Virus record (IMG/VR): IMGVR_UViG_3300031963_000020
Location: 64,001 to 128,000 of that record
Source of the DNA: a virus
Direction: 5' to 3' (one strand)
DNA length: 64,000 bases
Made by a program: the position numbers and the translations under genes. The notes beneath the pieces were generated by a model. That model did not search any database. It was not told the origin of the DNA and saw only the letters and a list, made by a program, of their open reading frames with translations. Position 1 is the first letter of the stretch. Every line of letters begins with the position of its first letter. This document shows positions 20,831 to 47,889 of this stretch, in pieces.

Positions 20831-23800
20831 ATGAGCTTACCAGATATTACTGTTGTTATACAAAAACCAGATGTAGTTGTCAGAAACTTAGGTGGTTCAG
20901 GATCATTTTTAAATGTCGCTGATTCCGCAGTAAGTTCTTCTTATGCATTGACTGCAAGTTATGCATTAAATGGTGGTGGTGGAGGTGGTGGTGGAGATGG
21001 TGCAACAGGTCCAACTGGTGCAACTGGTCCTCGTGGTGCAACGGGTGTTGCAGGCTCTCCAGGTGGTGCAACGGGACCAACAGGTCCATCAGGTAGTCAA
21101 GGTGCAACAGGTATTCAAGGTTTAACAGGTGCACAAGGTGCAACAGGTGTACAAGGTACCACAGGTCCTACTGGTGCGCAAGGACCAACTGGTAGCACTG
21201 GTCCACAAGGTATTCAAGGTGTCACAGGTCCAACTGGTGCAATTGGTCCACAAGGTGTAACAGGTAGTACAGGACCACAAGGTATTCAAGGTGTTACTGG
21301 ATCTACTGGTCCTATCGGTCCACAAGGTGTAACAGGTAGTACAGGACCACAAGGAATCACGGGGCCAATAGGTGCAACTGGTCCGGAAGGTCCAACAGGT
21401 GCATCTGGTCCAACTGGTAGTACAGGTCCTACGGGTATTCAAGGTATTCAAGGACCAACTGGTAGTACAGGTCCGCAAGGTGATACAGGTCCACAAGGTT
21501 CAATTGGTCCAATAGGCCCAACAGGTCCAACTGGTAGCACAGGTCCACAAGGACCACAAGGTGATATTGGTATTACTGGTGCAACAGGTATCCAAGGACC
21601 AACAGGGTCAACAGGACCGCAAGGTATCCAAGGTGTCACAGGTCCAACAGGTCCAATTGGTCCTGGATTAAATATTAGTGGTAGTTTACCAGATACGGGT
21701 AGCCTTCCTCCATCGGCGCCAACTGGTTCTGCATTTATTATTGGTCAAGATTTATGGGTATATAATGGAACTTCTTGGGTAGACGTTGGTGATATCTACG
21801 GACCATCGGGTTCTACAGGCCCAACAGGTCCACAAGGTACCACAGGTCCAACAGGCCCAATAGGTCCACAAGGTGTAACAGGCAGTACAGGCCCAACAGG
21901 ACCAGAAGGCCCAACAGGTGCATCTGGTCCATCTGGTAGTGTTGGTCCACAAGGTCCAGTCGGTCCAATAGGTCCAACAGGTCCAACTGGTAGTACAGGT
22001 CCACAAGGACCAGAAGGTAACCAAGGAGAAACAGGTCCAACAGGTGTACAAGGTGCAACAGGTATTCAAGGGCCAACTGGTAGTACAGGTCCACAAGGTA
22101 TAACAGGTCCAACAGGACCAATTGGTGTAACTGGACCAACAGGTGTTGCAGGACCAACGGGTTCAACAGGTCCAGCAGGTACTGCTGGACCAACAGGTAG
22201 CACAGGTCCAATTGGTCCAGAAGGACCAACGGGTAGTACAGGACCAACAGGTCCACAAGGTGTAACAGGTAGTACAGGTCCAGTAGGTTTACAAGGTGTT
22301 ACTGGTTCTACAGGCCCAACAGGTCCACAAGGTGTAACAGGCTCAGAAGGTGCAACTGGTCCAATTGGTGTTACTGGTGCAACTGGTGTTACAGGTTCCA
22401 CAGGTCCAACAGGTCCAGTAGGTCCAACAGGTAGCACAGGTCCAACAGGTCCACAAGGAACCACGGGTCCAACTGGTGCAACTGGTTTACCTGGTGACAT
22501 CTATTCTACAACCAGTAGCACATCACTTTCTATCGGAACTGGTTCAAAAACATTAACTATTGCAACGGGACTTGCATATAGTATTGGTCAATCTGTTATT
22601 ATCGCATTCGATAATAGTAACAAAATGGAAGGTAGTGTTACCTCATACGATAGTGGAACAGGTCAATTAGTAGCTAATATTACAACGGCTACTGGTTCGG
22701 GTACATACACAGCATGGCAAGTAAGTTTGGCAGGTGCACCAGGACCAGCAGGTGTTACAGGTCCAACTGGTCCTGCAGGTCCAATTATTGCAGGACTCGT
22801 CAGTAGTTCTGCACAATACCCAGGATGGGTCACTAGTTCCGCACAAATTGATTATAACGCAATCACTAATAAGTTGAGTGGTGTAATATCCTCCTCAACT
22901 CAGTTTAATGCATTAACTGGTACATCTGCCTCATATTCAGCTACCGCATCGTTGTCTACAGCAGTAAGTGGTGGAACAGAAGATTATATACCACTTTGGT
23001 CATCAGCAAATACACTTACACGTAGTAGATTATACCAAACTGGTTCTAGTATTATATTTGGTGGAACGACATTCTATGATGAAACCGCACCAGATATCTT
23101 TGGCTTGTACGGTGGTATAACAGACTCATTTAATTTAATCACTGCGCACGCAATAATTGACAACTACTTACAAATAAATGTTCGTAACTTAAGTACAGGT
23201 TCTTCTGCATCATCAGATATAGTTGCGGTTAAGAGACTAGGAACAGAAACATCTGGCTTCATTGATATGGGTATCAATGATGACAATTATGTTGGTACGG
23301 AAATTTATGATGTTGCGGGTGATGCATACCTTTATACAGTAGGTGGAAATTTAGTAGTAGGTTCTGCAAGTGATACAGGAAGTGTAGTATTATTTACTGG
23401 CGGTGATACTCCATCGGATAAAAAAGTAGAATTACGAGCAAATAATTTACACGACATCACTGGTAGTCTTACAGCAACACAAGGATTTACTGGTTCGTTA
23501 TCTGGTATAGCAACGACCGCATCATTTGCAACAGCAGTTAGCGGTGGAACTACAAACTATATTCCATTCTTTAATACAGCAAACACGTTATTTAGAAGTA
23601 GATTATATCAAACTGGTTCTAGTATTATATTTGGTGGAACTACATTCTTTGACGAAACCGCACCAGATATCTTTGGTTTATATGGTGGTCTAACAAATTC
23701 ATATAATTTAATCACTGCACACGCAACAATTAACAATTACTTACAAATCAATGTTCGTAACTTAAGTACAGGTTCTTCTGTATCGTCTGACATAGTTGCA

Positions 23801-26659
23801 GTAACACCATTAGGTACAGAAGATTTTGGTTACATTGATATGGGTATCAATAGTGATAACTACGTTGGTAATAGAATTTATGATTTACCAGGAGACGGTT
23901 ATCTGTATACCACAGGTAGTAATTTAGTAGTTGGTACATCAACCGCAAATAGTAACGTTACTATTTTCGCAGGTGGTGACACTTACGCCAATCGTAAGTT
24001 AACATTAAAAGCAAGTAATCAACACGAAATAACAGGTAGTGTAAATATCAGTGGTAGTATATTACCATCAAATGATTCTGTATTTGACCTAGGTTCACCA
24101 TCATTAAAGTTTAGAAGTTTATATCTTTCTGGTTCTACTTTATATCTTGGCACGCTCGCAATCTCTGATAATAATGGTACATTATCTATAACACCATCGG
24201 GGTCATCGACTCTTTCACCTGTATCTGGTGCATTTACTGGGTCGTTCCTTGGTAATTTGATCGGAAATGCTAATACAGCAACAACAGCATCGTTTGCAAC
24301 CACAGCATCATTTGCACTAAATGCACAAAACGTACCACTCGGTACAGTATCAAGTTCAGCACAATATCCTGGTTGGGTCACAAGTTCTGCGCAAATTGAT
24401 TATAATAGTATACAAAATAAGTTAAGTGGTGTAATATCTTCATCAACACAATTTAACTCATTAAGTGGTACATCAGCATCATTTGCAACAACCGCAAGTT
24501 ATGTAGCAGGTGCAGCAAGTGACTGGGCATCATTAGCAAATAAACCAGCAGATATCGTAAGTAGTTCTACCCAAGTCAAGGCGTTCTTACCTGGTGGCAC
24601 TGTAAGTGCATCGGCACAATATCCTGGTTGGGTAACCGCATCATCACAAATTGATTATAATAATATTACCAACAAATTATCTGGTGTAGTTTCCGCATCA
24701 GCACAAGTAGTACCATTACTTCCTGGTGGAACCGTTTCAAGTTCAGCACAATACCCAGGATGGGTCACTAGTTCCGCACAAATTGTGGTGCAAAATACCA
24801 CTGGTATTGGTGCGTTAGCAACAACTGGTTCAAATACATTTGTTGGTAATCAAGTAATTAGTGGTTCATTAACTACCACCGCAGATACAATGACCTTCAA
24901 TGGGTCGATGGCCGTATCGGGAACACTTTCATTAACTGGTAGTTTAAATGTATTAAACGGTGGATTTACTGGTTCATTAACGGGTAGTGCAACTACAGCA
25001 ACATCGGCGTCATTTGCAACTACCGCAAGCGCAGCAACCAGTATAACATTTATACCAGCAACGTCATCATTTGCATTAACAGCAAGTTATGTTCCTGGTG
25101 CAGCAAGTGATTGGAATTCTGTAGCAAATAAACCAGCAGATTTGGTCAGTAGTTCTACCCAAGTCAAGGCGTTCTTACCTGGTGGAACTGTTTCAAGTTC
25201 CGTACAATACCCAGGATGGGTAACCGCATCAAGTCAAATTGACTATAACTCAATTCAAAATAAGTTAAGTGATGTTGTATCAAGTAGTGCACAAGTTCAA
25301 CCACTACTTCCTAACGGAACAGTATCAAGTTCCGCACAATACCCAGGATGGGTAACCGCATCAAGTCAAATAGAATTAAATAGTATTACAGGAACCACAT
25401 TTGCAACAGCAAACTTTACTTTCCCACAAAACTTAACTGTCGCTGGAACACTTACCGCTCAAGAAATACAAACCGAATACGTAACATCATCTATTATTTA
25501 CGAATCTGGTTCAACTAAGTTCGGTGATACAGCAGACGATACACATCAATTTACAGGTTCATTAAGCGTTCTTGGAACAATTAGTGGTGGATTGGTATTA
25601 CCAGCAGGAACTGTAACAGCATCATCACAAATTGATTATAACTTAATTCAAAATAAATTAAGTGGTGTGGTAAGTAGTTCATCACAAATTCAACCACTAC
25701 TTCCAGCAGGAACAGTATCAAGTTCTGGTCAAGTAGATGTTCGTAACACAACTGGTATTTCAACACTTGCAACTACTGGTTCAAACACATTTACCGCAAC
25801 ACAAACAATAATTGGAAACGTATTCTTAAGTTCATCGTTCCCATTAGTTTATAATAACGATAACACTAACAATATGTTGTTTGGGTTCTTTGATGGTAGC
25901 TCCATTTACGGTGCATATTATCAAACATTTGGAAATAACTACACGGCACTAAATCAACGTGGTGGTGCAGAGTTTGTATATGATATTAGAAATAATAGTG
26001 GTGCAAACTTCCATATCGCATCATTTAATGGTGCAACTTGGACTGAAAAGTTTAGAGTAGATGATAACGGAGCACACGTAACTGGTTCATTGGTATCAAC
26101 TGGTGGTATTACTGGTTCATTACTTGGAACAGCAAGTTTCGCAACTACAGCTTCATTTGCATTAGCAACCGCAGGAACCGTAGAAAATGCAAATACAGCA
26201 TCATATGTAGCATATACAAATATTGATGGTAAACCAACACTAGTATCTGCATCATCACAAATAGATTACAATTCTATTACGAATAAGTTGAGTGGTGTAT
26301 ACAGTAGTTCGGCATTCGCATCACCAAACCAAGGTACTGTAAGATTAACATTAAATGGTGTTCAGTTAACTGACGTTGATTTGGGTGTACAAACATCTGA
26401 TACCCCAACATTTGCTGGAGTAAGTAGTTCAAATCATATCACTCCAACCGCAGATAATACTTATAACTTGGGTGCACCTGATAAGAGATGGGCAAACATA
26501 TACACGGGTGACTTAATATTATCTAATGAAGGTTCTTCAGGTAATACCGTAGATGGAACAACAGGTAACTGGACTATTCAAGAAGGTGAAGAACATCTAT
26601 ACATTATCAATAACAAGTCTGGTAAGAAGTTTAGATTTATGTTATCGGAGATTAACTAA
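20831..26659 (+). CDS. Long tail fibre protein with collagen-like region, duplicated beta domain and SSSAQ repeats
   Basis: Long G-X-Y (GPT/GST) tracts; tandem ~200-aa domain; [11 protein letters not shown] repeats; C-terminal WANIYTGDL...WTIQEGEE module. Confidence 0.85.
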
Positions 26660-36228: not shown

Positions 36229-36960
36229 ATGTTAAGATTTTTTCCGTATAGAACATTTAGTTCGTCATTTGCATTCACGGGGTCCGCAGCACAAACTGCA
36301 TCATTCGTGCTGTCTGGAACCACCGCATCGTTTTCACTAACTGGTGGTGGTCCAACTGGTCCTGTTGGGCAAACGTCGGTAGTACAAGGTATTACAGGTG
36401 TATCAGGACCAACAGGTATAGGTCCAACAGGTCCACGTGGCACCACAGGTCCAACAGGCCCAAGATCAGCAACAGGTCCAACAGGACCAACTGGTATTAC
36501 AGGACCAACTGGCGCTACAGGAGCAACTGGAGCTGCATCAACTGGTCCAACAGGACCAATAGGAGTTTCAGGTAGTACAGGTCCAACAGGACCAACAGGT
36601 GCAACAGGTATTATCGGTATCACAGGTGCAACTGGTCCGACAGGAGCAACAGGTCCAAGTGGTCCAACAGGTATTCAAGGTATTGCAGGGCCGCAAGGTG
36701 TTACTGGTGCTACGGGTCCAACTGGTGCAATTGGTGTCGCAGTATCAGGTATCCAAGGTCCAACAGGTGTAACAGGGCCGTCAGGTCCATTTGGTTCTTC
36801 TGGTCCACAAGGTACAATTGGTGTTACAGGTCCAACAGGACCAACAGGTGCACAAGGAACCGCATTTACAGGGCCAACAGGTGCAACAGGTGCAACTGGT
36901 GCTACGGGTCCAACAGGAGCTGTGGGAGCTACTGGTCCAACTGGTGCGAACACACCATAA
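36229..36960 (+). CDS. Collagen-like protein 1 (FFP N-terminal motif)
   Basis: MLRFFPY...SSSFA then ~200 aa of G-X-Y. Confidence 0.85.
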
Positions 36961-36975: not shown

Positions 36976-38619
36976 ATGACGTTTAAATTTTTTCCGTTCG
37001 GTGTACCAACTACTAGTTCGTTTGCAATAGGAGTCGGAGTAACAGCTACCGCATCTATTGCAATTAATAGTGGTTCTGCGTTCTCTACGGCGTCATACGC
37101 ACTGGGTGGGTCCACGGGTGCCACAGGTCCAAGTGGTCCGCAAGGAGCAACAGGTCCAACAGGTCCAACGGGTCCAACAGGCATTTCTGGATCAACTGGT
37201 GTTTTGGGTACTTCTGGTTCAACAGGACCACAAACGTCAGGGTCAACAGGTCCGACTGGACCAAGTGGTATTACTGGAGCAACAGGTCCAACAGGACCAA
37301 CTGGTATTACGGGTTCTACGGGTGTAATAGGTATTACAGGACCATCTGGTATTCGTGGTGCAACAGGTGCAACTGGAGCAACAGGTCCAACAGGCCCAAC
37401 AGGTAGTGTTGGTATAACTGCTGGTATCATAGGTGTATCAGGTGTTACAGGCCCAACTGGTTCATCTGGTCCAACTGGTGTACAAGGAAGCACGGGTCCA
37501 ACTGGTGTGGGGCCAACTGGAGCAACAGGTGCAACGGGTCCATCTGGTTCAGCAGGACCAACAGGACCAGTGGGACCAACAGGAGCAACTGGTGCAATCG
37601 GACCATCTGGATCTTCTGGTCCAAATACATTCGGAATAGTTGGTATAACTGGAGCAACTGGTCCTACTGGTGTTATCGGACCAACGGGACCACAAGGAAA
37701 CGCTGGTCGAGCTGTATTTTTCATAACAGGATCATGTAATCAAACACATTCCGATATCACCGTTCCTCACAGTGACGTTGCAGCAAGTCATACTGATATC
37801 GCAGCAGCACACACAGATACTACCATTAATGCATCACATAGTGACATTGTTACCACAACACCAGCATCACATACAGATAATACTACACCATTCGTAAATA
37901 CGACTATTAACGCATCACATAGTGACACAACAATTAATGCATCACATAGTGATATTGCGCATAGTAATATTACAATTAACGCCGCACATACTGATAATAC
38001 CACACCATTTAATAATATCGCATTTACTAATATTGCAAAATCACATACGGATATTTCACACAGCAATATATCACATACGAATATCGGAGCAGCACATACA
38101 GATAATACTACACCATTTAATAATATCGCGTTTAGTAATATTGCATTCACAAATACCACTATACCATTTAGTAACATAGGATTTAGTAATTCGTATACTC
38201 CACATTCAAACATTGCTAAAGGTGCAGTTCATAAAGACGATTACGGTCCACCAGCACATACAAATAGTACAACACCACATAGTAATATTGCATTCTCAAA
38301 CACAGGATTCTCTAACTCGTATACTCCACATACAAACGTGGGTCATACGGATATTGCGTTCTCTAATACAGGATTTAGTAATAGTTATACTCCACATACT
38401 AATATTGGTTCAGCTCACACCAACACTACAATCAACGCATCACACACAGATAATTACACGGCACATCAAAACGTAGCGCATGGAGATATACCGTTCGTGA
38501 ATAGTTATACACCGGCACAATGTTCGCAATGTCCTGGTGGAGATCCGTCTGAATGTGATTCGTTCTGTGAATGTTATCCAAACTGTGGTTGCTTCGGTAA
38601 TACGTGCATCGGTATATAA
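36976..38619 (+). CDS. Collagen-like protein 2 fused to (H/F)-x-(N/D) array and 8-Cys C-terminal domain
   Basis: MTFKFFPFG; ~200 aa G-X-Y; 38 (H/F)x(N/D) motifs; CSQC...[13 protein letters not shown]...C tail. Confidence 0.85.
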
Positions 38620-38645: not shown

Positions 38646-39422
38646 ATGCCAGGTCCAACACATACAAATATAGGCCACTCCGATATAGCGTTTGAGAATG
38701 TCTACGCTGCGCATACTGATTTTACACAAAATCCGGCACACACTGACAATACCACACCATTTAATAATATTGCAGCAGCTCATACCAATATCGCTCATAG
38801 TAATCAGGCATTTCTTAATACTTCATTTAGTAATATAGCAAAATCACACACCAATGTATCACATACAAATATTGGGCATACAGACGGTACGGCAGCACAT
38901 ACAGACAACTATTCACCAGCATCGCATTTAGATAATACTAGTGCACACTCAAATATCGCAGCAGCTCATACAAATATTGCACATAGTAATATAGCAACAT
39001 CACACACAGATATATCTCACTCAAATATATCTCATACTAACATCGGTGCATCACACACTGACAATACCACACCATTTAACAATATTGCGTTTAGTAATAT
39101 TGGGTTCGTAAACACCACTATTCCACATACTAATATTGGTCACACTAATATAGGTGCAGCGCATTCAGATAATACAACACCAGCAGATCACAGCGATATC
39201 GCATTTAGTAATATTACGATTAACGCAAGTCACACGGATATTACAATCAACGCAAGTCACACGGATATTGCAGCATCACATACCGATACTACCATTAACG
39301 CATCACACACGAATATAGTAAGTACCACTCCAGCTTCACATACCGACAGTACAACACCATTTACAAATAGTACTACACCACACTCAAATGTTGCGGCCGC
39401 TCACAGTAACGCATTCCTATAA
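38646..39422 (+). CDS. (H/F)-x-(N/D) repeat protein, mirror partner of 36976..38619
   Basis: 38 motifs; spacing is the reverse of the upstream array at 34/37 intervals. Confidence 0.85.
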   Translation: MPGPTHTNIGHSDIAFENVYAAHTDFTQNPAHTDNTTPFNNIAAAHTNIAHSNQAFLNTSFSNIAKSHTNVSHTNIGHTDGTAAHTDNYSPASHLDNTSAHSNIAAAHTNIAHSNIATSHTDISHSNISHTNIGASHTDNTTPFNNIAFSNIGFVNTTIPHTNIGHTNIGAAHSDNTTPADHSDIAFSNITINASHTDITINASHTDIAASHTDTTINASHTNIVSTTPASHTDSTTPFTNSTTPHSNVAAAHSNAFL

Positions 39423-39428
39423 TACACT

Positions 39429-40292
39429 ATGTCGCAATTTTTTCCACTAGGTACACCAACAACTGCAAGTACAGCACTTATCAGTAGTTTAGCATTTACC
39501 GCAACGTATGCTGTGAATGTGAATGTGTTGACAGCATCATATGGTCCTGGACCAACTGGACCACAAGGTGATAAAGGACCAACAGGACCACAAGGTGCAA
39601 CTGGATTGGCAGGGTCAGGTTCTACAGGACCAACGGGCGCAACAGGTCCAACTGGGCTAACTAGTTCAGGTCCAACAGGTCCAACAGGACCGCAAGGTGT
39701 AATCGGTATTACTGGTATTACAGGCCCAACAGGTGTCACAGGTTCTACAGGCCCAACAGGTCCAATAGGAATTACTGGTGTAATTGGTGTTACAGGTATT
39801 TCTGGTGTAACTGGTATTGCTTCATTTACTTCGGGTTCCACAGGCGCTACTGGGCCAACTGGAGCAACAGGTGCTACTGGTGTGGTGGGTATTACTGGTG
39901 CAACTGGTATTATTGGAATCACAGGACCAACAGGATTGACTAATTTGGTGGGCATTACAGGTCCAACAGGTCCAATAGGATTACCAACCACGGGTTCTAC
40001 AGGTCCAAGTGGTCCACAAGGAGCAACTGGTGTTGTAGGTACTGGTGGTGTTTCTGCAGGAGCGGCGGCATCTGGAGTCATCGGTATTACGGGTATTACT
40101 GGTGTACAAGGTACCACAGGACCGCAAGGAAGTCGTGGTGTGGACGCCGAATGTCCAGCAGGATTTGTAACCTGTACGGAAGGGGCTCCGTCATCGGGGT
40201 CAAATACATATACAAACCCAAATAGTAGTATATATTCTGTGGTTTGTGCCGCAAGACCAGTAGGTTGTTTAGGAACATTTACGTGTGTATAA
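39429..40292 (+). CDS. Collagen-like protein 3 with Cys-containing C-terminal domain
   Basis: MSQFFPLG; ~200 aa G-X-Y; CPAGFVTC...C...C...C. Confidence 0.85.
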
Positions 40293-40364: not shown

Positions 40365-41558
40365 ATGGCTAAAGCACCTGGTAGTATTTGGGTAGATGGT
40401 GAAACCTTTAGATTTATTGACGCAACTGGAAACGAGTACTATTACACTGGTACTGCGGGGTCTAGTCCTGCGGGAGCTAAGGCTGGTTCAATTTGGGTAG
40501 ACGGAAATGATTTTCATTATATTTCTGCTACTGGTGTTGACCGTACAATTGCATACACCGATTTGGGTGTAGCAGCGGGATCAAAACCAGGTTCAGTATG
40601 GGTGCAAACCACATTCTGGCAATGGATATCATCGGCAGGAAACGCTCGTCGTGGTCACACCGACGTAACAGCAGCACACACCGACAATACCACCCCAGCA
40701 TCTCACACAGATATTGCATTCGTTAATACTACAATTAACGCGGCACACACAGATACTACAATCAACGCAAGCCATACAGATATAGCAAAAGCACACACGG
40801 ATAACACAACACCAAATAGTCACACGGACAACACTACTCCGTTCAATAATATTGCGTTCGTTAATACTACAATCAATGCCGCTCACACGGATAATACAAC
40901 GAACGCAAGCCATACAGATATAGCAAAAGCACACACGGATAACACAACACCAAATAGTCATACTAACAGCTATACTCCACATAGTAATGTCGCACACACC
41001 AATATTGGTGCAGCGCACACGGACAACACTACTCCGTTTAATAATATCGCATTCACTAACACCTATATTGGTAACAGTCACACCAACAGTTATACTCCAC
41101 ACAGTAATGTCGCACACACCAATATTGGTGCAGCGCACACGGACAACACTACTCCGTTTAATAATATAGCATTTACCAATTCATATACAGGTAATAATCA
41201 CACTAACAATTACACACCACACACCAATATCGGTCACAGTAATATCGGTCATACTAATATCGGATTTAGTAACATAGCATTTAGTAATATTGGATTTACC
41301 AATACAACTATCAATGCATCACACACAAATATCAGTCATAGTAATATTGGTGTATCGCATACAAATATCGGTCATAGTAATGTTGGATTTAGTAATTCGT
41401 ATACTGGACACACAAACATTGCACATAGTAATATAGGCGTATCGCATACAAATATTGGACATAGTAATGTTGGATTTAGTAATTCGTATACAGGATTTGT
41501 AAATTCTTACACACCACAAAATCACACAAATTCGTATCAGGGTGGTCCTTCAGCCTAA
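40365..41558 (+). CDS. Protein with three GS(I/V)WV repeats and a 44-motif (H/F)-x-(N/D) array
   Basis: KAPGSIWVDG, KAGSIWVDG, KPGSVWVQ; array from 40656; SD GGAG. Confidence 0.85.
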   Translation: MAKAPGSIWVDGETFRFIDATGNEYYYTGTAGSSPAGAKAGSIWVDGNDFHYISATGVDRTIAYTDLGVAAGSKPGSVWVQTTFWQWISSAGNARRGHTDVTAAHTDNTTPASHTDIAFVNTTINAAHTDTTINASHTDIAKAHTDNTTPNSHTDNTTPFNNIAFVNTTINAAHTDNTTNASHTDIAKAHTDNTTPNSHTNSYTPHSNVAHTNIGAAHTDNTTPFNNIAFTNTYIGNSHTNSYTPHSNVAHTNIGAAHTDNTTPFNNIAFTNSYTGNNHTNNYTPHTNIGHSNIGHTNIGFSNIAFSNIGFTNTTINASHTNISHSNIGVSHTNIGHSNVGFSNSYTGHTNIAHSNIGVSHTNIGHSNVGFSNSYTGFVNSYTPQNHTNSYQGGPSA

Positions 41559-41578
41559 TGCATGAAAAGGAATAATAT

Positions 41579-42484
41579 ATGAATCATAGTAATTCGACAA
41601 CACCAGCATCACATACGAACATCGGTGCATCACATACTAATATCGGGTTTAGTAATGTGGGGTTTAGTAATAGTTATACTCCATTTTCAAATGTTGGGTT
41701 CGGTAATGTCAATGCATCACATACTGATATTGGATTTAGTAATGTGGGATTTGCAAATTCTTACACACCATTTAGTAATGTAGGGTTTTCCAATAGTTAC
41801 ACACCAAATTCACACACTAATATTGCACACAGCAATATTGGTCATAGTAATATTGGATTTAATAATATTGCGTTTAGTAATATCGCATTTGGTAATATTG
41901 CAAGAACACATACCGATAACACTACAAATGCAAGTCATACCAACATTGGTCATACAAATATTGGTGCTGCACACACGAATAACACCACACCATTTAATAA
42001 TATAGCGTTTAGTAATATTGCGAAGGCACACACAGATAACACTACAAATGCAAGTCATACCAATATCGCGCATACAAATATTGGTGCTGCACATACGGAT
42101 AACACCACACCATTTAATAATATAGCGTTTAGTAATATTGCGAAGGCACATACGGACAATACTACAATTGCCTCACACACGGACAATTACACTCCGCATA
42201 CAAACACTACAATTAATGCGGCACATACCGACAATACAACACCAGCATCACATACGGATATCGCACATACTAATATTGCTGCAGCACATACGGACAATAC
42301 TACTAACGCAGCCCATACGGACAATTACACCCCGCATACAAACACTACAATTAATGCCGCACACACGGATACCACAATCAACGCAAGTCATACCGACATT
42401 GCGCACACTAATACAACAATTAATGCTGCACACACGGATAACACCACACCACATAGCGACCAACCAGTATTTGTTGGTCCATAA
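41579..42484 (+). CDS. (H/F)-x-(N/D) repeat protein, exact mirror partner of 40365..41558
   Basis: 44 motifs; 43/43 spacings are the reverse of the upstream array; SD AAGGA. Confidence 0.85.
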   Translation: MNHSNSTTPASHTNIGASHTNIGFSNVGFSNSYTPFSNVGFGNVNASHTDIGFSNVGFANSYTPFSNVGFSNSYTPNSHTNIAHSNIGHSNIGFNNIAFSNIAFGNIARTHTDNTTNASHTNIGHTNIGAAHTNNTTPFNNIAFSNIAKAHTDNTTNASHTNIAHTNIGAAHTDNTTPFNNIAFSNIAKAHTDNTTIASHTDNYTPHTNTTINAAHTDNTTPASHTDIAHTNIAAAHTDNTTNAAHTDNYTPHTNTTINAAHTDTTINASHTDIAHTNTTINAAHTDNTTPHSDQPVFVGP

Positions 42485-42549: not shown

Positions 42550-43869
42550 ATGACTATTGAATTAGAACCAGTTGGTGTAGTATGTAATTTAAGTTGCCCG
42601 TATTGTTACGAACATCCCATGCGAGATGCGGGTAATTTCCGACATAAAACATATTCCGTTGAAAAAATGTTAGAAGGTCTTGCCAAAGAAGGTGGTAATT
42701 TTACCCTCTTTGGTGGTGAACCATTATTAACTGATATTGACGATTTAGAAACTATTTTTAAGTGGGGGTTTGACCGATATGGATTTAATGGTATTCAAAC
42801 AAATGGTGTTTTAATTACTGACCGCCACATAGAAATGTTTAAGAAGTACAGAGTTCACGTCGGAATATCACTTGATGGTCCTGACGAAATGAACGACACG
42901 CGTTGGGCAGGGTCATTAGAAAAGACCAGAGAGGCTACCCGCAAGTCATTTGAAGCTATTAAAAAGTGTCTTGACAACAAGCTCTCACTTGGTTTAATTA
43001 TTACTATCCATAAGAAGAACGGATTACCAAAATATCGTGAACGTTTCAAGGCATGGATTAAAGAACTTCAGTCGTGGGGTGTTGATGGAGCAAGACTTCA
43101 TCCACTAGAGATTGACCATAGTTCTGTTGGTGAAACATTAGCTCTTACACCAGAACAAAATATTGAGTTCCTATTAGATATGTGGGACTTTGAAATCAGT
43201 GAACTAAATGTTCCTGGTAAGAAATCATTTCAGTTTGATATCTTCCGTGACGTAGAATATATGTTGCGTGCAGACGATGCAAACGCAACCTGTACATTTA
43301 TGACTTGTGACCCATATACCACGCATGCGGTGCAAGGTATTGACTCGCAAGGTAATAAAGCAAACTGCGGTCGTGGTAACAAAGAAGGTATTAACTGGAT
43401 TAAAGCCGATGTTGACGGATTTGAACGTCAGATGGCACTATATAATACACCACAAGAACATGGTGGATGTCAGGGGTGCCGATTCTTTATTATGTGTAAG
43501 TCACACTGCCCAGGTACAGGTGCAGATATGGACTGGAGAAATAGAACGGATACCTGTATGAATTGGAAGGTAGCGTTTAGTATCTATGAACGAATGATGG
43601 TTGAACGTGGTGAGATGCCATTATCTCTAGACCCAAAATTAAAGAGATATGAAGATATTTTGATGTATGGTTATAGTAGAGGTGCAGAACTTAGATTAGA
43701 ACACATTAAAAAGTATCTTGACCCAAATATTGGATTTGATATTGAAAGATACATCCAATCATATTTGATGAACCAAGCTATGGGTGGACACAAGCCACAC
43801 GCAGACCATACAGATGAAACAGGAAGATACGCATTAGAGTTTAAAGAGAAGTACGGATATTTACCTTAA
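42550..43869 (+). CDS. Radical SAM enzyme with SPASM-type domain (putative peptide/protein maturase)
   Basis: CNLSCPYC (CxxxCxxC), FGGEPLL, QTNG, ISLDG; C-terminal CTFMTC, NCGR, CQGCRFFIMCKSHC...C auxiliary-cluster cysteines. Confidence 0.92.
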   Translation: MTIELEPVGVVCNLSCPYCYEHPMRDAGNFRHKTYSVEKMLEGLAKEGGNFTLFGGEPLLTDIDDLETIFKWGFDRYGFNGIQTNGVLITDRHIEMFKKYRVHVGISLDGPDEMNDTRWAGSLEKTREATRKSFEAIKKCLDNKLSLGLIITIHKKNGLPKYRERFKAWIKELQSWGVDGARLHPLEIDHSSVGETLALTPEQNIEFLLDMWDFEISELNVPGKKSFQFDIFRDVEYMLRADDANATCTFMTCDPYTTHAVQGIDSQGNKANCGRGNKEGINWIKADVDGFERQMALYNTPQEHGGCQGCRFFIMCKSHCPGTGADMDWRNRTDTCMNWKVAFSIYERMMVERGEMPLSLDPKLKRYEDILMYGYSRGAELRLEHIKKYLDPNIGFDIERYIQSYLMNQAMGGHKPHADHTDETGRYALEFKEKYGYLP

Positions 43870-43887: not shown

Positions 43888-44286
43888 ATGATACCAGGAT
43901 TACACGCAGACCACGTTGACACATCGGGTGCATATGGTCAAAAATTTGAAGTCGTAAAAGACTTGTTAGAAAAAGGAATGTTGAAAGAAATTCCAGAAGA
44001 ATTCCGTGATAAAGGAAATACTTCCGAAGAAGTTCCGGTTATTACTAATTCACAAACAGTTGTTGGTAATCAGCAATCGGGATGGGATATGTCTCGTGAC
44101 CATGCCGACCACGTTGACGAAACTGGTCGTTATGCACAATCGTATATGGAACGATTTGGTTCGGATTCCTTAAATAATAACGAAATTTCACAAGGAACTA
44201 CAGAACAACAGCAAGATACTGGTAATTCTTGGAAGTCTTTCTTGAAGAAGATTATTGCAGAAGAAAAGAGTAAGTTGAAGGTTTAA
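43888..44286 (+). CDS. HADHxD-repeat accessory protein
   Basis: HADHVDTSGAYG and HADHVDETGRYA, matching the radical SAM C-terminal HADHTDETGRYA. Confidence 0.75.
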   Translation: MIPGLHADHVDTSGAYGQKFEVVKDLLEKGMLKEIPEEFRDKGNTSEEVPVITNSQTVVGNQQSGWDMSRDHADHVDETGRYAQSYMERFGSDSLNNNEISQGTTEQQQDTGNSWKSFLKKIIAEEKSKLKV

Positions 44287-44305: not shown

Positions 44306-45787
44306 ATGCAAAGAATAAAGCATGTCTTGCCTGATTGGACTCGGGTGCAGTGGACTTCTATAGAAAATAGAAACAAATACGAACCTATCATTGCGTCTAT
44401 CAATAACGCATGGAAACAGATTGAACGTATGTCGGTTGTTCACGATATTCGTCCATCTTCACTAGATATATTATCACCAGAAGAACTCATAAATTTAACT
44501 GCGGAATACGAAAAACATGGAGTACTCGTAGTTCCTATTGGTAAAGAAGGAAAAGCAGGAACTTACTCGTCTACAAGTACACCATATAATGGTGGTGATT
44601 ACAATATTCGTGTTGTATTCACAAAGTCTGAAGCTATAGCAGATGAATGGTTTAATATCTGGCAAGCAGAACCCCGCATTCGTGACCGTGAGGCTGGTCG
44701 TTTACTTGGGTATCCTACCTGCTGCACCAATCATTTTATGAAGTATTGGGTAGACCAGGAATTTGTTGATACTACGTGGACGATGGCAGCGGAAAATATG
44801 CAGTTAAATGATGACGATGAAACGCATCGTACTATTCATATTAAGGCAGATACTCCACCTGAAGCAAACATAATGTGGCGTTGGCAAGGTGTACGATTGG
44901 TATCACATCTTCCGTGTTCGTTTGATTGCAAGGCAACAGAAGAACTTGGTATGAAGATGGCAGAACTTGGTCGTACACTTGGGTTTGAAAAAGAAGTAAA
45001 TTGGATATATGAATTACTTTCGTGGCCTGTTGAATGGTCAGCACTGCATGGTATCGCAGAAATCCGTACACCAATCAACAAGATTTCATCCAGAACTGAT
45101 ATGACCCCGTGGAAGTATGTGGTACAGAAGCATGCACACGAATATCCTATTGATGGTATGTCTGGTATAACGTATCCGTATAATCAAAAGAAAATTAAAG
45201 TCAAACCCGTCACAAAAACTATCTCGTTCGCTAAATCTCTTGAAGATACTTCCGTATGGGAAGAAAACGGATTTAGTAATAAGGAAGCTATGGATCACTT
45301 CCACCAAGTTATCATTGACGCAATCGGGGATATGAAATATATTCCTGGTGGTAATGTCCTCGACCTCGGTTGTGGAAATGGTGTCTTGTTAGGTCGTGTA
45401 GTTGGAGACAGATTTGATCTCATCCCACACGGTGTTGAAGCAGACCGTCAACGTTGTATGTCCGCAGCAACTACCATCCATTGGGGTGTCTTTACAATGG
45501 GTAGCATCTTTGACCTTAATACGTGGAAGGAAGATACATATAGTTTGGTACTTTTGATGCCAGGCAGACTTCTTGAAACCACACGTGTAGTATCAGAACA
45601 AGTGCGTAAGCAACTCTATGACAAGACAGACCTTGTTCTTATCAACCTAACTTGTGATTGGACACAACAATATGGCTCGATTGAGAATATTATGAAGGTC
45701 ACAGGTCTTGACCAAGAATGGGAACCAGCAGGTAAGTTAATCCATCGTCAAGATGATATGGCACAACTTTTCAAGCGTAAGGTGTAA
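44306..45787 (+). CDS. Cys-motif domain (DUF483-like) fused to class I SAM-dependent methyltransferase
   Basis: RLLGYPTCC and SHLPCSFDC motifs; VLDLGCGNG motif I followed by GVE. Confidence 0.7.
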   Translation: MQRIKHVLPDWTRVQWTSIENRNKYEPIIASINNAWKQIERMSVVHDIRPSSLDILSPEELINLTAEYEKHGVLVVPIGKEGKAGTYSSTSTPYNGGDYNIRVVFTKSEAIADEWFNIWQAEPRIRDREAGRLLGYPTCCTNHFMKYWVDQEFVDTTWTMAAENMQLNDDDETHRTIHIKADTPPEANIMWRWQGVRLVSHLPCSFDCKATEELGMKMAELGRTLGFEKEVNWIYELLSWPVEWSALHGIAEIRTPINKISSRTDMTPWKYVVQKHAHEYPIDGMSGITYPYNQKKIKVKPVTKTISFAKSLEDTSVWEENGFSNKEAMDHFHQVIIDAIGDMKYIPGGNVLDLGCGNGVLLGRVVGDRFDLIPHGVEADRQRCMSAATTIHWGVFTMGSIFDLNTWKEDTYSLVLLMPGRLLETTRVVSEQVRKQLYDKTDLVLINLTCDWTQQYGSIENIMKVTGLDQEWEPAGKLIHRQDDMAQLFKRKV

Positions 45788-45788
45788 T

Positions 45789-46019
45789 ATGACAGAAGAA
45801 ATCAAAGAAGCACCAGTTCCAATAGCAATTCGTCAATTAGTTGATTTACATAACACCCGTATCCGTGAATACCAACAACGTTCATTACAAGAACTTCAAG
45901 ATGCAAACATTGAACTAATGTTAATGATGGGTTTAAGCCCACAAGACGGATGGCGATTAGATATGGAAACAATGAAATACATTAAAGTTCCAACAGATGG
46001 AAATACACAAGTCGGCTGA
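45789..46019 (+). CDS. Small hypothetical protein (start moved to ATG 45789)
   Basis: Closely coupled to flanking genes; helical. Confidence 0.6.
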   Translation: MTEEIKEAPVPIAIRQLVDLHNTRIREYQQRSLQELQDANIELMLMMGLSPQDGWRLDMETMKYIKVPTDGNTQVG

Positions 46020-47889
46020 ACACGTAATATTTACGTGGGGTAGGTTCAAAGGGCACTCCTTAGCACACGTTGCAAGGAGTGTTCCTTCGTATTTGGAATG
46101 GATGTCTGGTCAAGATGGTTTACCTGAGCAATGGAGAATTGCAGCAGCAAAAACCTTGATGAACGAAGATATTAGTGAACTTGACCTTCCCAGAACGAAC
46201 AATCCAACTATCTCATATAAAGATTTACCCAAGCAATCAAGTGATAAGGTAGAGGTGTTATTAGTTGATAATAAAACCGCTGCAATCATTATGCCATACG
46301 ACAAAGTGATGTTGGCAAAGTTTAAGTATGAAATTGATGGTCGCAAATGGAACAACGATGAGAAGCATTGGGAGTTTCCAGTTGTGCATCTTCCAAAACT
46401 ATTTACGATATTCACCAATATTAAGTGTGATAAGAAAGTATTAGATAAAGTTGAGGAACTTAAATCTCGTAGACAAGACCTCGACGAAATCCGTAGTCAA
46501 GAAGATACAGACTTCCAAATCAAGGGGATGCAACTCAATCTGTATCCATATCAGAAAGTTGGTGTACAGTTCGTGGATAGAGCAGGTGGTCGTTGTTTGA
46601 TTGCAGACGCACCTGGCTTGGGTAAGACGGCACAAGCGATTGGATATGCACAACATCACAATCTCAAAACACTTATTGTCTGTCCATTATCTGTTGTAGT
46701 CAACTGGCAACGTGAAATCAAAAAGTTTACTGGTAAGAAATCTACCATTTGGGATAGTAAACATTATTACGGAGAGTTGGATAATCAGTTCCACATCGTG
46801 CATTATGATGCGGTGGCTAAGATTAGTAAATCACTTCGTGAACAAAAGTTTGACCTCTTGGTGTGTGATGAAGCAACTTACTTAAAGAATAGACAAACCA
46901 TCAGAGCAAAAAGTATCTTGGGGTCGTGGAAAGAAAGACGAAAGTATCCTGGGATTAAAACCAAGTATTCTATCTTCTTAACGGGAACACCAGTAATGTC
47001 TCGTCCAATCGAAGCATTTAGTTTATTAAACTTTTTAGATAAAGAACGATTTAATAACTTTTACCATTTCGTCGAACGCTATGGTGGATGGAAAGGTGAT
47101 GCTCCACGAAATCTCCAAGACTTGCATGACCGTACAAAAGATTTGGTCATCCGTAGAAAGAAAAGTGAGGTGCTTACAGAACTCCCACCAAAGCAACGAA
47201 ATGACCTGTATGTAGAACTTACCAAAGAAGAAAAAAAGGAATATCAAGAACTACTCAAAGAAGTCTTTGGTAAATGGAAAATGGACGGTAAACCCTCGGT
47301 CACCCATATGCCAAAACTCCAAGCATTCCTTATCCAAAAGAAAATGCCACGATTAATGGAAATGATTGACGAGTTCTTGGATAACGACAGGTCAATCTTG
47401 ATATTCAGTAACTATCTTGGCCCCCTTCGTTTCCTGACGGAACATTATGGGGACAAAGCCGCCCTCTTGACGGGTGATATGAACAGAGATAAACGGCAGG
47501 AAAGTATTGATAGATTAACCAGCGGAAAAGCTAAAATCGGATGTTTTAGTCTCTTGGCGGCGGGTATGGGTATCGACGGATTACAGAAAGTCATAGATAC
47601 CGTAGTATTTCTCAACTGTGATTGGGTTCCTGCAAACCACGAACAAGCAGAGGACAGAACCCATCGTATCGGTCAAACCTCCCAAGTCCAAGCCTATTAT
47701 ATGTTATGCGAGGACACCATAGACGAATATATGCGGGACATTCTCAAAGAGAAACAACAGGTCGCAGACCTTATTGTGGACGGAGCATTGGTCACTCCTG
47801 ATAGTAATAAATCATTTTTTAAGGAATTTGTCCGCAGAATTAGTTCGGTATATAATACCCATTTTACCGATGAAAATATAGAAGATTGA
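45997..47889 (+). CDS. SNF2-family helicase/annealing ATPase (HARP/SMARCAL1-like)
   Basis: ADAPGLGKT, DEA, LTGTP, IRRKK, QAEDRTHRIGQ; N-terminal FTWGRFKG...YLEW module. Confidence 0.88.
   Translation: MEIHKSAEHVIFTWGRFKGHSLAHVARSVPSYLEWMSGQDGLPEQWRIAAAKTLMNEDISELDLPRTNNPTISYKDLPKQSSDKVEVLLVDNKTAAIIMPYDKVMLAKFKYEIDGRKWNNDEKHWEFPVVHLPKLFTIFTNIKCDKKVLDKVEELKSRRQDLDEIRSQEDTDFQIKGMQLNLYPYQKVGVQFVDRAGGRCLIADAPGLGKTAQAIGYAQHHNLKTLIVCPLSVVVNWQREIKKFTGKKSTIWDSKHYYGELDNQFHIVHYDAVAKISKSLREQKFDLLVCDEATYLKNRQTIRAKSILGSWKERRKYPGIKTKYSIFLTGTPVMSRPIEAFSLLNFLDKERFNNFYHFVERYGGWKGDAPRNLQDLHDRTKDLVIRRKKSEVLTELPPKQRNDLYVELTKEEKKEYQELLKEVFGKWKMDGKPSVTHMPKLQAFLIQKKMPRLMEMIDEFLDNDRSILIFSNYLGPLRFLTEHYGDKAALLTGDMNRDKRQESIDRLTSGKAKIGCFSLLAAGMGIDGLQKVIDTVVFLNCDWVPANHEQAEDRTHRIGQTSQVQAYYMLCEDTIDEYMRDILKEKQQVADLIVDGALVTPDSNKSFFKEFVRRISSVYNTHFTDENIED

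Follow-up and report, generated by a model that had tools for sequence, protein, structure and literature searches.

What would lead two neighbouring phage genes to carry the same series of short motifs at the same spacings, one in exactly the opposite order to the other? The question is raised by a 64,000-nucleotide stretch of viral DNA, positions 64,001-128,000 of the IMG/VR record IMGVR_UViG_3300031963_000020 (hereafter the window), in which the adjacent plus-strand genes D (40365-41558) and E (41579-42484), members of a set that we designate A to E, encode long arrays of the motif [HF]-x-[ND]. A first-pass annotation of the window had proposed that the two products pair antiparallel, as the two strands of a hairpin fibre divided between two genes. 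In the explanation that we favour, to which we would assign a probability of roughly three in four, the pairs D/E and A/B would each be the outgoing and returning arms of a long phage fibre hairpin that is split into two genes at its distal turn and held in register by a code within the arrays, and the motifs would most likely be substrates of a radical S-adenosylmethionine (SAM)/SPASM enzyme encoded just downstream.

Mirrored spacing in two gene pairs

Motif positions were scripted on the translated open reading frames (ORFs), an interval being the number of residues between successive motifs. The product of D (397 residues) opens with an N-terminal domain (40365-40655) of three repeats of ~30 residues, each of the form G-S-x-W-x-x-G...Y-I-D, as in G-S-I-W-V-D-G...Y-I-D; this domain includes one stray FID at residue 17 and would attach the D/E fibre at its proximal end. 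The array of D (40656-41558), the putative outgoing arm, holds 44 motifs between residues 98 and 387 and closes with a short Gly-Gly-Pro tail. E (301 residues), the putative returning arm, likewise has 44, the first at residue 3 and the array reaching to residue 292, and ends in H-S-D-Q-P-V-F-V-G-P, a tail that is the most conserved part of the protein. The intervals in both are only 5, 7 or 9 residues (17 fives, 15 sevens and 11 nines), and the list read from D is that of E reversed, at 43 of 43 positions. The recount thus agrees with the first-pass annotation in the number of motifs, in their odd intervals and in the reversal itself. In control comparisons, D matched unreversed E at 9/43 positions and its own reverse also at 9/43, and the best of 200,000 shuffles reached 30/43, from among 3.3e18 distinct interval orders that are possible.

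A second pair lies upstream on the same strand. Gene A (36976-38619) encodes an N-terminal attachment segment, a collagen triple-helix region at residues 45-245 (Pfam Collagen, 8e-24), a putative outgoing arm of 38 motifs at residues 258-509 and, in its last ~38 residues, a Cys-rich tip; gene B (38646-39422) would provide the returning arm of the A/B fibre, with 38 motifs and the C-terminus H-S-N-A-F-L. Compared position by position, these arrays mirror one another at 34 of 37 intervals, the mismatches being a swap of 9,11 for 11,9 and a single 9 against 7. The A/B barcode differs from that of D/E, and none of the four arrays is palindromic by itself. Both downstream genes, B and E, possess an AGGA-like ribosome site and an ATG of their own, so that the splits are not frameshift artefacts.

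D and E share modules in the same sense and both contain tandem duplications, and on these grounds the mirror could be attributed to chance, or to duplication between paralogous low-complexity genes in which no selection for mirroring has acted. This account is effectively refuted: the exact order has a probability of ~3e-19, direct alignment of the arrays does no better than shuffles, and the mirror recurs in nine pairs of different pattern as well as in fused palindromes, described below. The duplications, which measure 138, 120 and 87 nucleotides in order along D and 87, 120 and 138 along E, are matched length changes. Within the matched 120-nucleotide duplications sits a same-sense module of ~20 residues common to both genes (40956-41223 and 41873-42171), with aromatics H,H,H,F,F at intervals 5,7,7,5; it is self-complementary when two copies are set antiparallel, in the manner of a palindromic DNA site.

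Split and fused arrays among relatives

At 45-52% identity, the downstream radical SAM (rSAM) enzyme has homologues in three Thermus phages, phiLo, Cumys and phiMa, and others are encoded on 22 viral contigs of IMG/VR; related contigs are cited here by L numbers such as L005. In most of the 22, array ORFs stand upstream of the enzyme, either as split pairs or as single ORFs. Seven more split pairs (from L003, L004, L005, L007 and L012) have spacings unlike those of the window, and in each the two partners mirror one another, at 45/46, 42/43, 37/38, 31/32, 11/12, 26/28 and 25/27 intervals. Alignment scores of the split pairs are far above those of unreversed and shuffled comparisons, except for the short, 12-interval pair of L012. 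When the nine split pairs, including the two of the window, are compared in all combinations, arrays score 23-45.5 with their own partners and 2-29 with any other, and in every pair the own-partner score exceeds any non-partner score. Since each of the nine matches only its own partner, many interval changes in one gene have been matched in the other. Independent variation of length or spacing in homologous gene pairs, which the first-pass annotation had named as evidence that would speak against pairing, is the opposite of what is found: the two change together.

The same annotation had looked ahead to homologues that would unite the two halves in a single ORF with palindromic spacing, and such genes do exist. 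L009:2680-5289 encodes a protein of 869 residues that is its own mirror image at 101/101 intervals, and L010:6510-8186 is palindromic at 39/39; two further single-ORF palindromes are L009:1-1785 (53/56) and L010:9076-9942 (21/24). Closer to the window, in phages whose rSAM enzymes are 82-85% identical to that encoded here, L005:4871-6484 and L007:5522-7084 are fused orthologues of A and B, in which collagen, outgoing arm, Cys-rich tip and returning arm follow one another in a single chain that ends H-S-N-A-Y/F-L, as B does; the two arms of the L005 protein match at 18/18 intervals. The returning protein of L012, by contrast, has a tip-like Cys-rich domain at its own N-terminus. The position of the tip in the fused forms and in L012 implies that the arms have their distal ends at the same place, and hence that the pairs of the window represent gene fissions at the turn.

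The module extends to more remote phages. An array protein, an rSAM enzyme and a protein of the DUF483 family together make up an "rSAM module" in the Thermus phages Cumys and phiMa, and the same three components are present in the window, with the array split so that the N-domain belongs to D and the x-D-Q-P-V-x-V-G-P tail to E. The Cumys gene that lies upstream of the rSAM gene (Cumys_13) unites a D-type N-domain, a run of H-x-D motifs and an E-type tail (...D-Q-P-V...) in one protein. The Thermus phage array proteins differ from those of the window in being single-chain, of short period (3-6 residues) and only partly palindromic, a 6-residue interval often lying opposite 3+3. A preprint on these phages treats the module proteins as having no known function and, in the portion available, mentions neither an H-x-D array nor palindromy (10.1101/2024.08.14.607894). 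A phmmer search with D against 1.84 billion representative proteins returned 286 relatives in which the N-domain is conserved, most of them 200-260 residues long and composed of N-domain, array and tail; 26 of 67 arrays from the distant family were palindromic at p<=0.05, where ~3 would be expected. A word-indexed protein search gave 7 matches, its candidate list being saturated by low-complexity words.

Complementarity along the arms

In six of the split pairs and in four fused proteins, each motif was compared with its mirror partner, giving 354 rungs, of which 206 are His:His, 147 Phe:His and a single one Phe:Phe. His opposite His is mostly H-x-D, and His opposite Phe is H-x-N in ~83% of cases. 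In D/E, all 28 Phe motifs (13 + 15) stand opposite His and none opposite Phe, as the first-pass annotation had counted them and as the script confirms, and A/B also has 0 Phe:Phe pairs. A full shuffle gives p ~0.0013 for the absence of Phe:Phe pairs in D/E. Because composition shifts along the fibre, full-shuffle tests of this rule and of the Asp/Asn rule overstate significance, and they were replaced by rung-shift controls. Sliding the D/E partner by 1-4 rungs yields 2-10 Phe:Phe pairs, and across the split pairs both rules are sharpest at shift 0 when compared with shifts of 1-4 rungs.

The complementarity extends beyond the aromatic positions. In D/E, the four-residue linkers of the 7-residue intervals, for which a tendency to complementarity had been noted in the first-pass annotation, are of opposite class in 15/15 pairs, a polar N/S-x-T-P or x-Y-T-G type always facing an I/V-x-x-A/S type; for the D/E pairs that are closest, three in number, the counts are 15/15, 14/15 and 14/14, and A/B has 12/15. 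Mutual information between the middle residues of facing motifs (X2) is 0.33 bits at shift 0 against <=0.18 elsewhere, with 96 T:T and 48 S:S pairs; between the two aromatic positions it is 0.14 against <=0.04, and between the third positions (X3) 0.16 against <=0.13. Motif polarity, aromatic first, is the same on both arms, so that antiparallel pairing would place X2 opposite X2 in a dyad-symmetric rung with H-x-D over D-x-H. The same geometry, as in an antiparallel ladder, is suggested by X2-X2 being the strongest coupling.

These relations, together with the fused orthologues and the mirroring of each array with its own partner, support the split-hairpin interpretation, and on the strength of such patterns the arms very probably do pair antiparallel and in register. 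Mirrored arrays might instead never touch, the two being laid in opposite orientations on a third, symmetric scaffold or being read in opposite order by a processive enzyme, and the low confidence with which the arrays are predicted structurally gives this idea some room, as does the fact that pairing is deduced from sequence. We regard it as quite improbable: residues co-vary rung by rung, and at shift 0 only, which argues for close proximity of the facing motifs; the arms of the fused forms are separated by no more than a short turn or a small tip domain; and no scaffold gene with matching periodicity was found in the 148-kb genome.

In the split-hairpin reading, then, the outgoing arm would be anchored proximally through the three-repeat N-domain of D or the collagen stalk of A, and the returning arm would run antiparallel to it, motif opposite motif, so as to bring its conserved tail to an end beside the anchor. 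Register and partner choice would be set by a code of several layers: the motif interval would be equal on both arms; every rung would have at least one His, with Phe opposite His only; a His facing His would mostly belong to H-x-D and one facing Phe mostly to H-x-N; a linker of the T-T-P type would lie opposite one of the I-x-x-A type; and the middle residue X2 would be matched, T with T and S with S. A figure of ~95 nm, which the first-pass annotation gave for the length of the paired region, presumes a fully extended backbone. The collagen region of A implies three chains, making an A3B3 assembly plausible.

Heterospecific coiled coils offer a partial parallel, in that a few residue classes in a repeat code (heptad positions a/d and e/g) decide partner, register and orientation. 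Those chains are alpha-helical with a fixed 7-residue period, whereas in the arrays the period varies among 5, 7 and 9 as a barcode, the chains would be non-helical, and pairing would extend over ~290 residues. Should the pairing be real, it would constitute a recognition principle in which register, orientation and choice of partner can be read from sequence, with a code whose two halves, in separate genes, change in concert like the paired bases of an RNA stem, a rare situation in proteins and an attractive one for the design of long, addressable protein rods. The different barcodes of A/B and D/E would then keep the two fibres of one virion from mispairing. A more ambitious picture, which we offer tentatively, is that of a protein "duplex" of two chains, each of ~290 residues, with compensatory changes like those of RNA stems, barcodes that prevent mispairing, and rungs stapled as cyclophanes. 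Close relatives with fused and split forms would furnish natural controls for experiments on these points.

Radical SAM enzyme, chemistry and gene block

Directly upstream of the rSAM/SPASM gene (42550-43869, plus strand; Pfam Radical_SAM, 1.4e-15) stand four ORFs with 164 [HF]-x-[ND] motifs, and its product is the presumed maturase of the arrays. The cysteines expected of such an enzyme can be read in the translation, as C-N-L-S-C-P-Y-C (CxxxCxxC) and as C-x2-C-x5-C-x3-C (SPASM). An array gene upstream of the rSAM gene, usually with a DUF483 gene next, is shared by the Thermus phages, most of the 22 viral contigs and three distant members from metagenomes, including P0076 and P0123. Each of those three has a Radical_SAM gene behind its array gene, with DUF483 next on 2/3 contigs; on the third, the gene after Radical_SAM is cut by the contig end and unannotated. 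The aromatic residue of the motif is mainly Tyr in P0076 and mainly Trp in P0123. From this persistent neighbourhood we judge that the enzyme probably acts on the arrays, and the link, which was absent from the first-pass annotation, is probably part of the mechanism.

The aromatic-x-Asp/Asn motifs would accordingly be substrates of the rSAM/SPASM enzyme and its DUF483-methyltransferase partner, and the chemistry that we favour, while holding it to be somewhat less than an even bet, is a triceptide-type, three-residue cyclophane in which the aromatic ring is linked to the C-beta of Asp/Asn, which would make every motif a rigid bead. The defining feature of triceptides is a bond from the aromatic residue to a C-beta within aromatic-X2-X3 motifs, and one of their synthases, HtkB, modifies both H-T-K and F-T-K (PMC11499958). 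The resemblance to the known systems (XyeB/XncB, GrrM/OscB, FxsB, YhhB, HaaB, HtkB and ChlB) therefore includes the motif grammar, the adjacent rSAM/SPASM gene, the repetition of motifs and, in HtkB, the acceptance of His and Phe by one enzyme. The present system differs in its large, virion-type substrates devoid of a leader, in an X3 that is only Asp or Asn, and in having a DUF483-methyltransferase partner in place of a protease or exporter. Membership of a triceptide system was considered and fails on family scores and on the type of precursor. The best NCBIfam matches of the enzyme are to anSME, followed by the aromatic cross-linking enzymes DynA, YhhB, AmcB, GrrM/OscB, FxsB and XyeB, all below cut-off (YhhB 65 bits of 445; AmcB 58/425; GrrM/OscB 48/310; FxsB 45/370; XyeB 38/450), and scores so far beneath the family thresholds place it in a separate rSAM/SPASM clade. 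Among PDB entries, anSME (4k37) ranks first and the triceptide synthase ChlB (9gm3) next.

Many aromatic-X2-X3 repeats beside an rSAM/SPASM gene could also mark the arrays as multi-core precursors of peptides made by the ribosome and then modified post-translationally (RiPPs), non-structural proteins to be cut into small cyclophane peptides and released, and precursors with multiple His motifs are indeed known in triceptide families. This we hold to be very improbable. Released peptides would need neither mirrored spacing nor complementarity across chains, a collagen stalk, a folded N-domain and Cys-rich tips are joined to the arrays, whose genes lie inside a tail-fibre block, and the annotated genes of the module include neither a protease nor an exporter.

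Judged by analogy, the nearest chemical relative of the arrays is the triceptide class and the nearest structural one is the needle of T4 gp37 (D10-D11). The latter, too, is the distal fibre part of a T4-type myovirus, formed by a chain that runs out and back with its termini together (PMC9603124), and it is lined by regularly spaced His motifs (PMC6957217); its receptor-binding tip lies at the turn, comparable with the Cys-rich domain of the fused A+B orthologues. That the array proteins also run out and back, with their termini together, we infer only. In gp37 there is one chain per hairpin, the rod measures ~20 nm and H-x-H motifs bind iron in the core of a trimer, whereas here each arm has ~290 residues, two genes are involved, the motif is aromatic-x-Asp/Asn, a Phe/His and linker-class code is present and an rSAM gene is attached. 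No sequence similarity between gp37 and the arrays was detected (PDB chains, E<=0.1).

The comparison with gp37 lends itself to another account, in which the arms pair, perhaps as a trimer of hairpins, and are joined by a ladder of metal ions bound to His and Asp, while the rSAM enzyme performs some other task such as DNA modification. His:His rungs nearly always include at least one Asp and Phe:His rungs have Asn, which resembles a charge-balanced set of ligands; gp37, with its chain running to the tip and back (PMC9603124), contains seven His-bound irons in the needle (PMC6957217); and A is fused to a collagen trimer. Several features make such a ladder unlikely. Approximately 40% of the rungs here have a single His and no Asp, and the gp37 motif is H-x-H rather than H-x-D/N, with no sequence similarity of the arrays to any solved chain. 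In distant members the motifs are mostly Y-x-D or W-x-D/N, which are poor metal ligands and good cyclophane substrates; a pattern of any aromatic residue with Asp/Asn fits a cyclophane better than metal binding. The adjacency of array and rSAM gene also persists in very distant members, and the tail of the rSAM enzyme itself bears H-x-D modules. Enrichment of Asp in His:His rungs nevertheless makes a role for metal possible.

A number of points count against the split hairpin with rSAM-modified motifs. The palindromy of the distant, short family members is merely statistical. AlphaFold2 (AF2) leaves the arrays at a predicted local distance difference test score (pLDDT) of ~50-58 with an alignment and ~40 without one (41 for L010:9076-9942), and a PDB sequence search with D and with the 869-residue fused form gave no meaningful match to the arrays at E<=0.1. 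The parity of the intervals, 5/7/9 in the window, is 6/7 in L009 and 3-5 elsewhere; a single regular beta-ladder would not be expected to vary in this way, and the variation argues for rungs that are structured locally and connected by linkers of matched length. The unit may be either 1:1 or a trimer of hairpins. As to the enzyme, its scores lie far below every curated cut-off and its best match is anSME, not a cyclophane synthase; its presumed substrates are structural proteins of 258-547 residues with no leader peptide, unlike any characterised triceptide precursor; and the preprint on the Thermus phages proposes DNA modification for their rSAM module (10.1101/2024.08.14.607894), as the metal-ion ladder would also have it. 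A co-fold of D 1-170 with E 222-301, using alignments, gave ipSAE values of 0.17 and 0.19, where the mark to reach was 0.32, and was counted neither for nor against binding.

In literature on phage cyclophanes, DUF483 and Thermus phage radical SAM enzymes, we found no account of the arrays, of mirrored spacing or of a hairpin divided between two genes. If the proposal holds, a widespread and uncharacterised array-rSAM-DUF483 module would gain a concrete substrate and a purpose, the maturation of virion fibres and not the modification of DNA, and radical chemistry of the RiPP type would be extended to virus structural proteins, for the first time on a structural protein of the virion.

The gene neighbourhood agrees in kind with a fibre role. 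The window forms part of a 148,340-bp phage genome (G+C content 38.9%) that encodes a T4-type major head protein, 52% identical to its counterparts in Flavobacterium phage immuto and Microcystis phage Mel-JY01, together with a tail sheath, a 1,942-residue collagen-like tail fibre and a tape-measure protein. The array genes occupy a myovirus tail-fibre block, with collagen-like fibre genes to one side and the tape-measure gene to the other. Collagen-like ORFs of the block include that of the 1,942-residue tail fibre (20831-26659) and one of 243 residues (36229-36960), and the phage has at least 5 collagen-repeat proteins. Megablast of the 10-kb array region against phage genomes found no match, and no transfer RNA genes were found in the window.

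Between the two pairs lies gene C (39429-40292, plus strand), a collagen-like gene (Pfam Collagen, 4e-24) with an A-type N-terminal segment, a Cys-rich C-terminus and 0 motifs, whose product is a possible stalk for D/E. The order A(B)-C-D(E) appears to be kept in related loci, going by the spacing of their array ORFs. The small Cys-rich domains of A and C (38500-38616 and 40140-40289), like those at the turn of the fused orthologues and in L012 (L012:1391-1620), matched no family; they would mark the distal end of the fibres and are candidate receptor-binding tips.

The domains that flank the arrays are better defined in models than the arrays themselves. In AF2 models of a fused homologue, P0009, built on a 36-sequence alignment, the N-domain exceeds a pLDDT of 90 and the strand of the C-terminal tail reaches 83. 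The three-repeat N-domain of D, which has no Pfam family, bears a weak resemblance to beta-prism II folds, the P0009 model giving a Z of 3.9 to the lectin-like bacteriocin LLPA (3m7h) in VIA-align; Foldseek with the same model returned nothing from the PDB at E<=0.001, and TM scores in the ESM Atlas were at most 0.26. Assignment of the arrays to the pentapeptide repeats was rejected, since Pentapeptide_2 scores 19.7 bits against a threshold of 26.4 and Pentapeptide_4 18.7 against 38, and the period varies among 5, 7 and 9.

The module continues on the plus strand beyond the rSAM gene. The C-terminal tail of the enzyme (43798-43869) ends in a module, H-A-D-H-T-D-E-T-G-R-Y, that is conserved in L003-L010, and the rSAM enzymes of the Thermus phages also have H-x-D-rich C-terminal tails. 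A small protein follows (43888-44286), which has two H-A-D-H-V-D-x-x-G-x-Y modules like that of the rSAM tail, is likewise conserved in L003-L010 and matched no family in the profile libraries. As a speculation, such H-x-D-H-x-D modules may dock onto an unpaired arm or act as a self-substrate. The third conserved member (44306-45787) fuses a DUF483 domain (Pfam, 27 bits against a cut-off of 25), which displays a conserved G-Y-P-x-C-C motif, to a SAM-methyltransferase-like domain with weak matches to MetW/MTS. The DUF483 protein stands alone in Cumys, and in L023 two DUF483-like genes are arranged in tandem. An rSAM branch represented by L015-L022 is 52-55% identical to the enzyme of the window and is without both the H-x-D tail and a downstream DUF483 gene; no array ORF above the search cut-off was found in L015, L016 or L019, and in L017, L018 and L020-L022 a short array protein (~195-220 residues) is encoded upstream of the rSAM gene. 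After the module in the window comes a gene for an SNF2-family helicase (45997-47889), similarly placed in L005, L007 and L009, with which the replication block probably begins.

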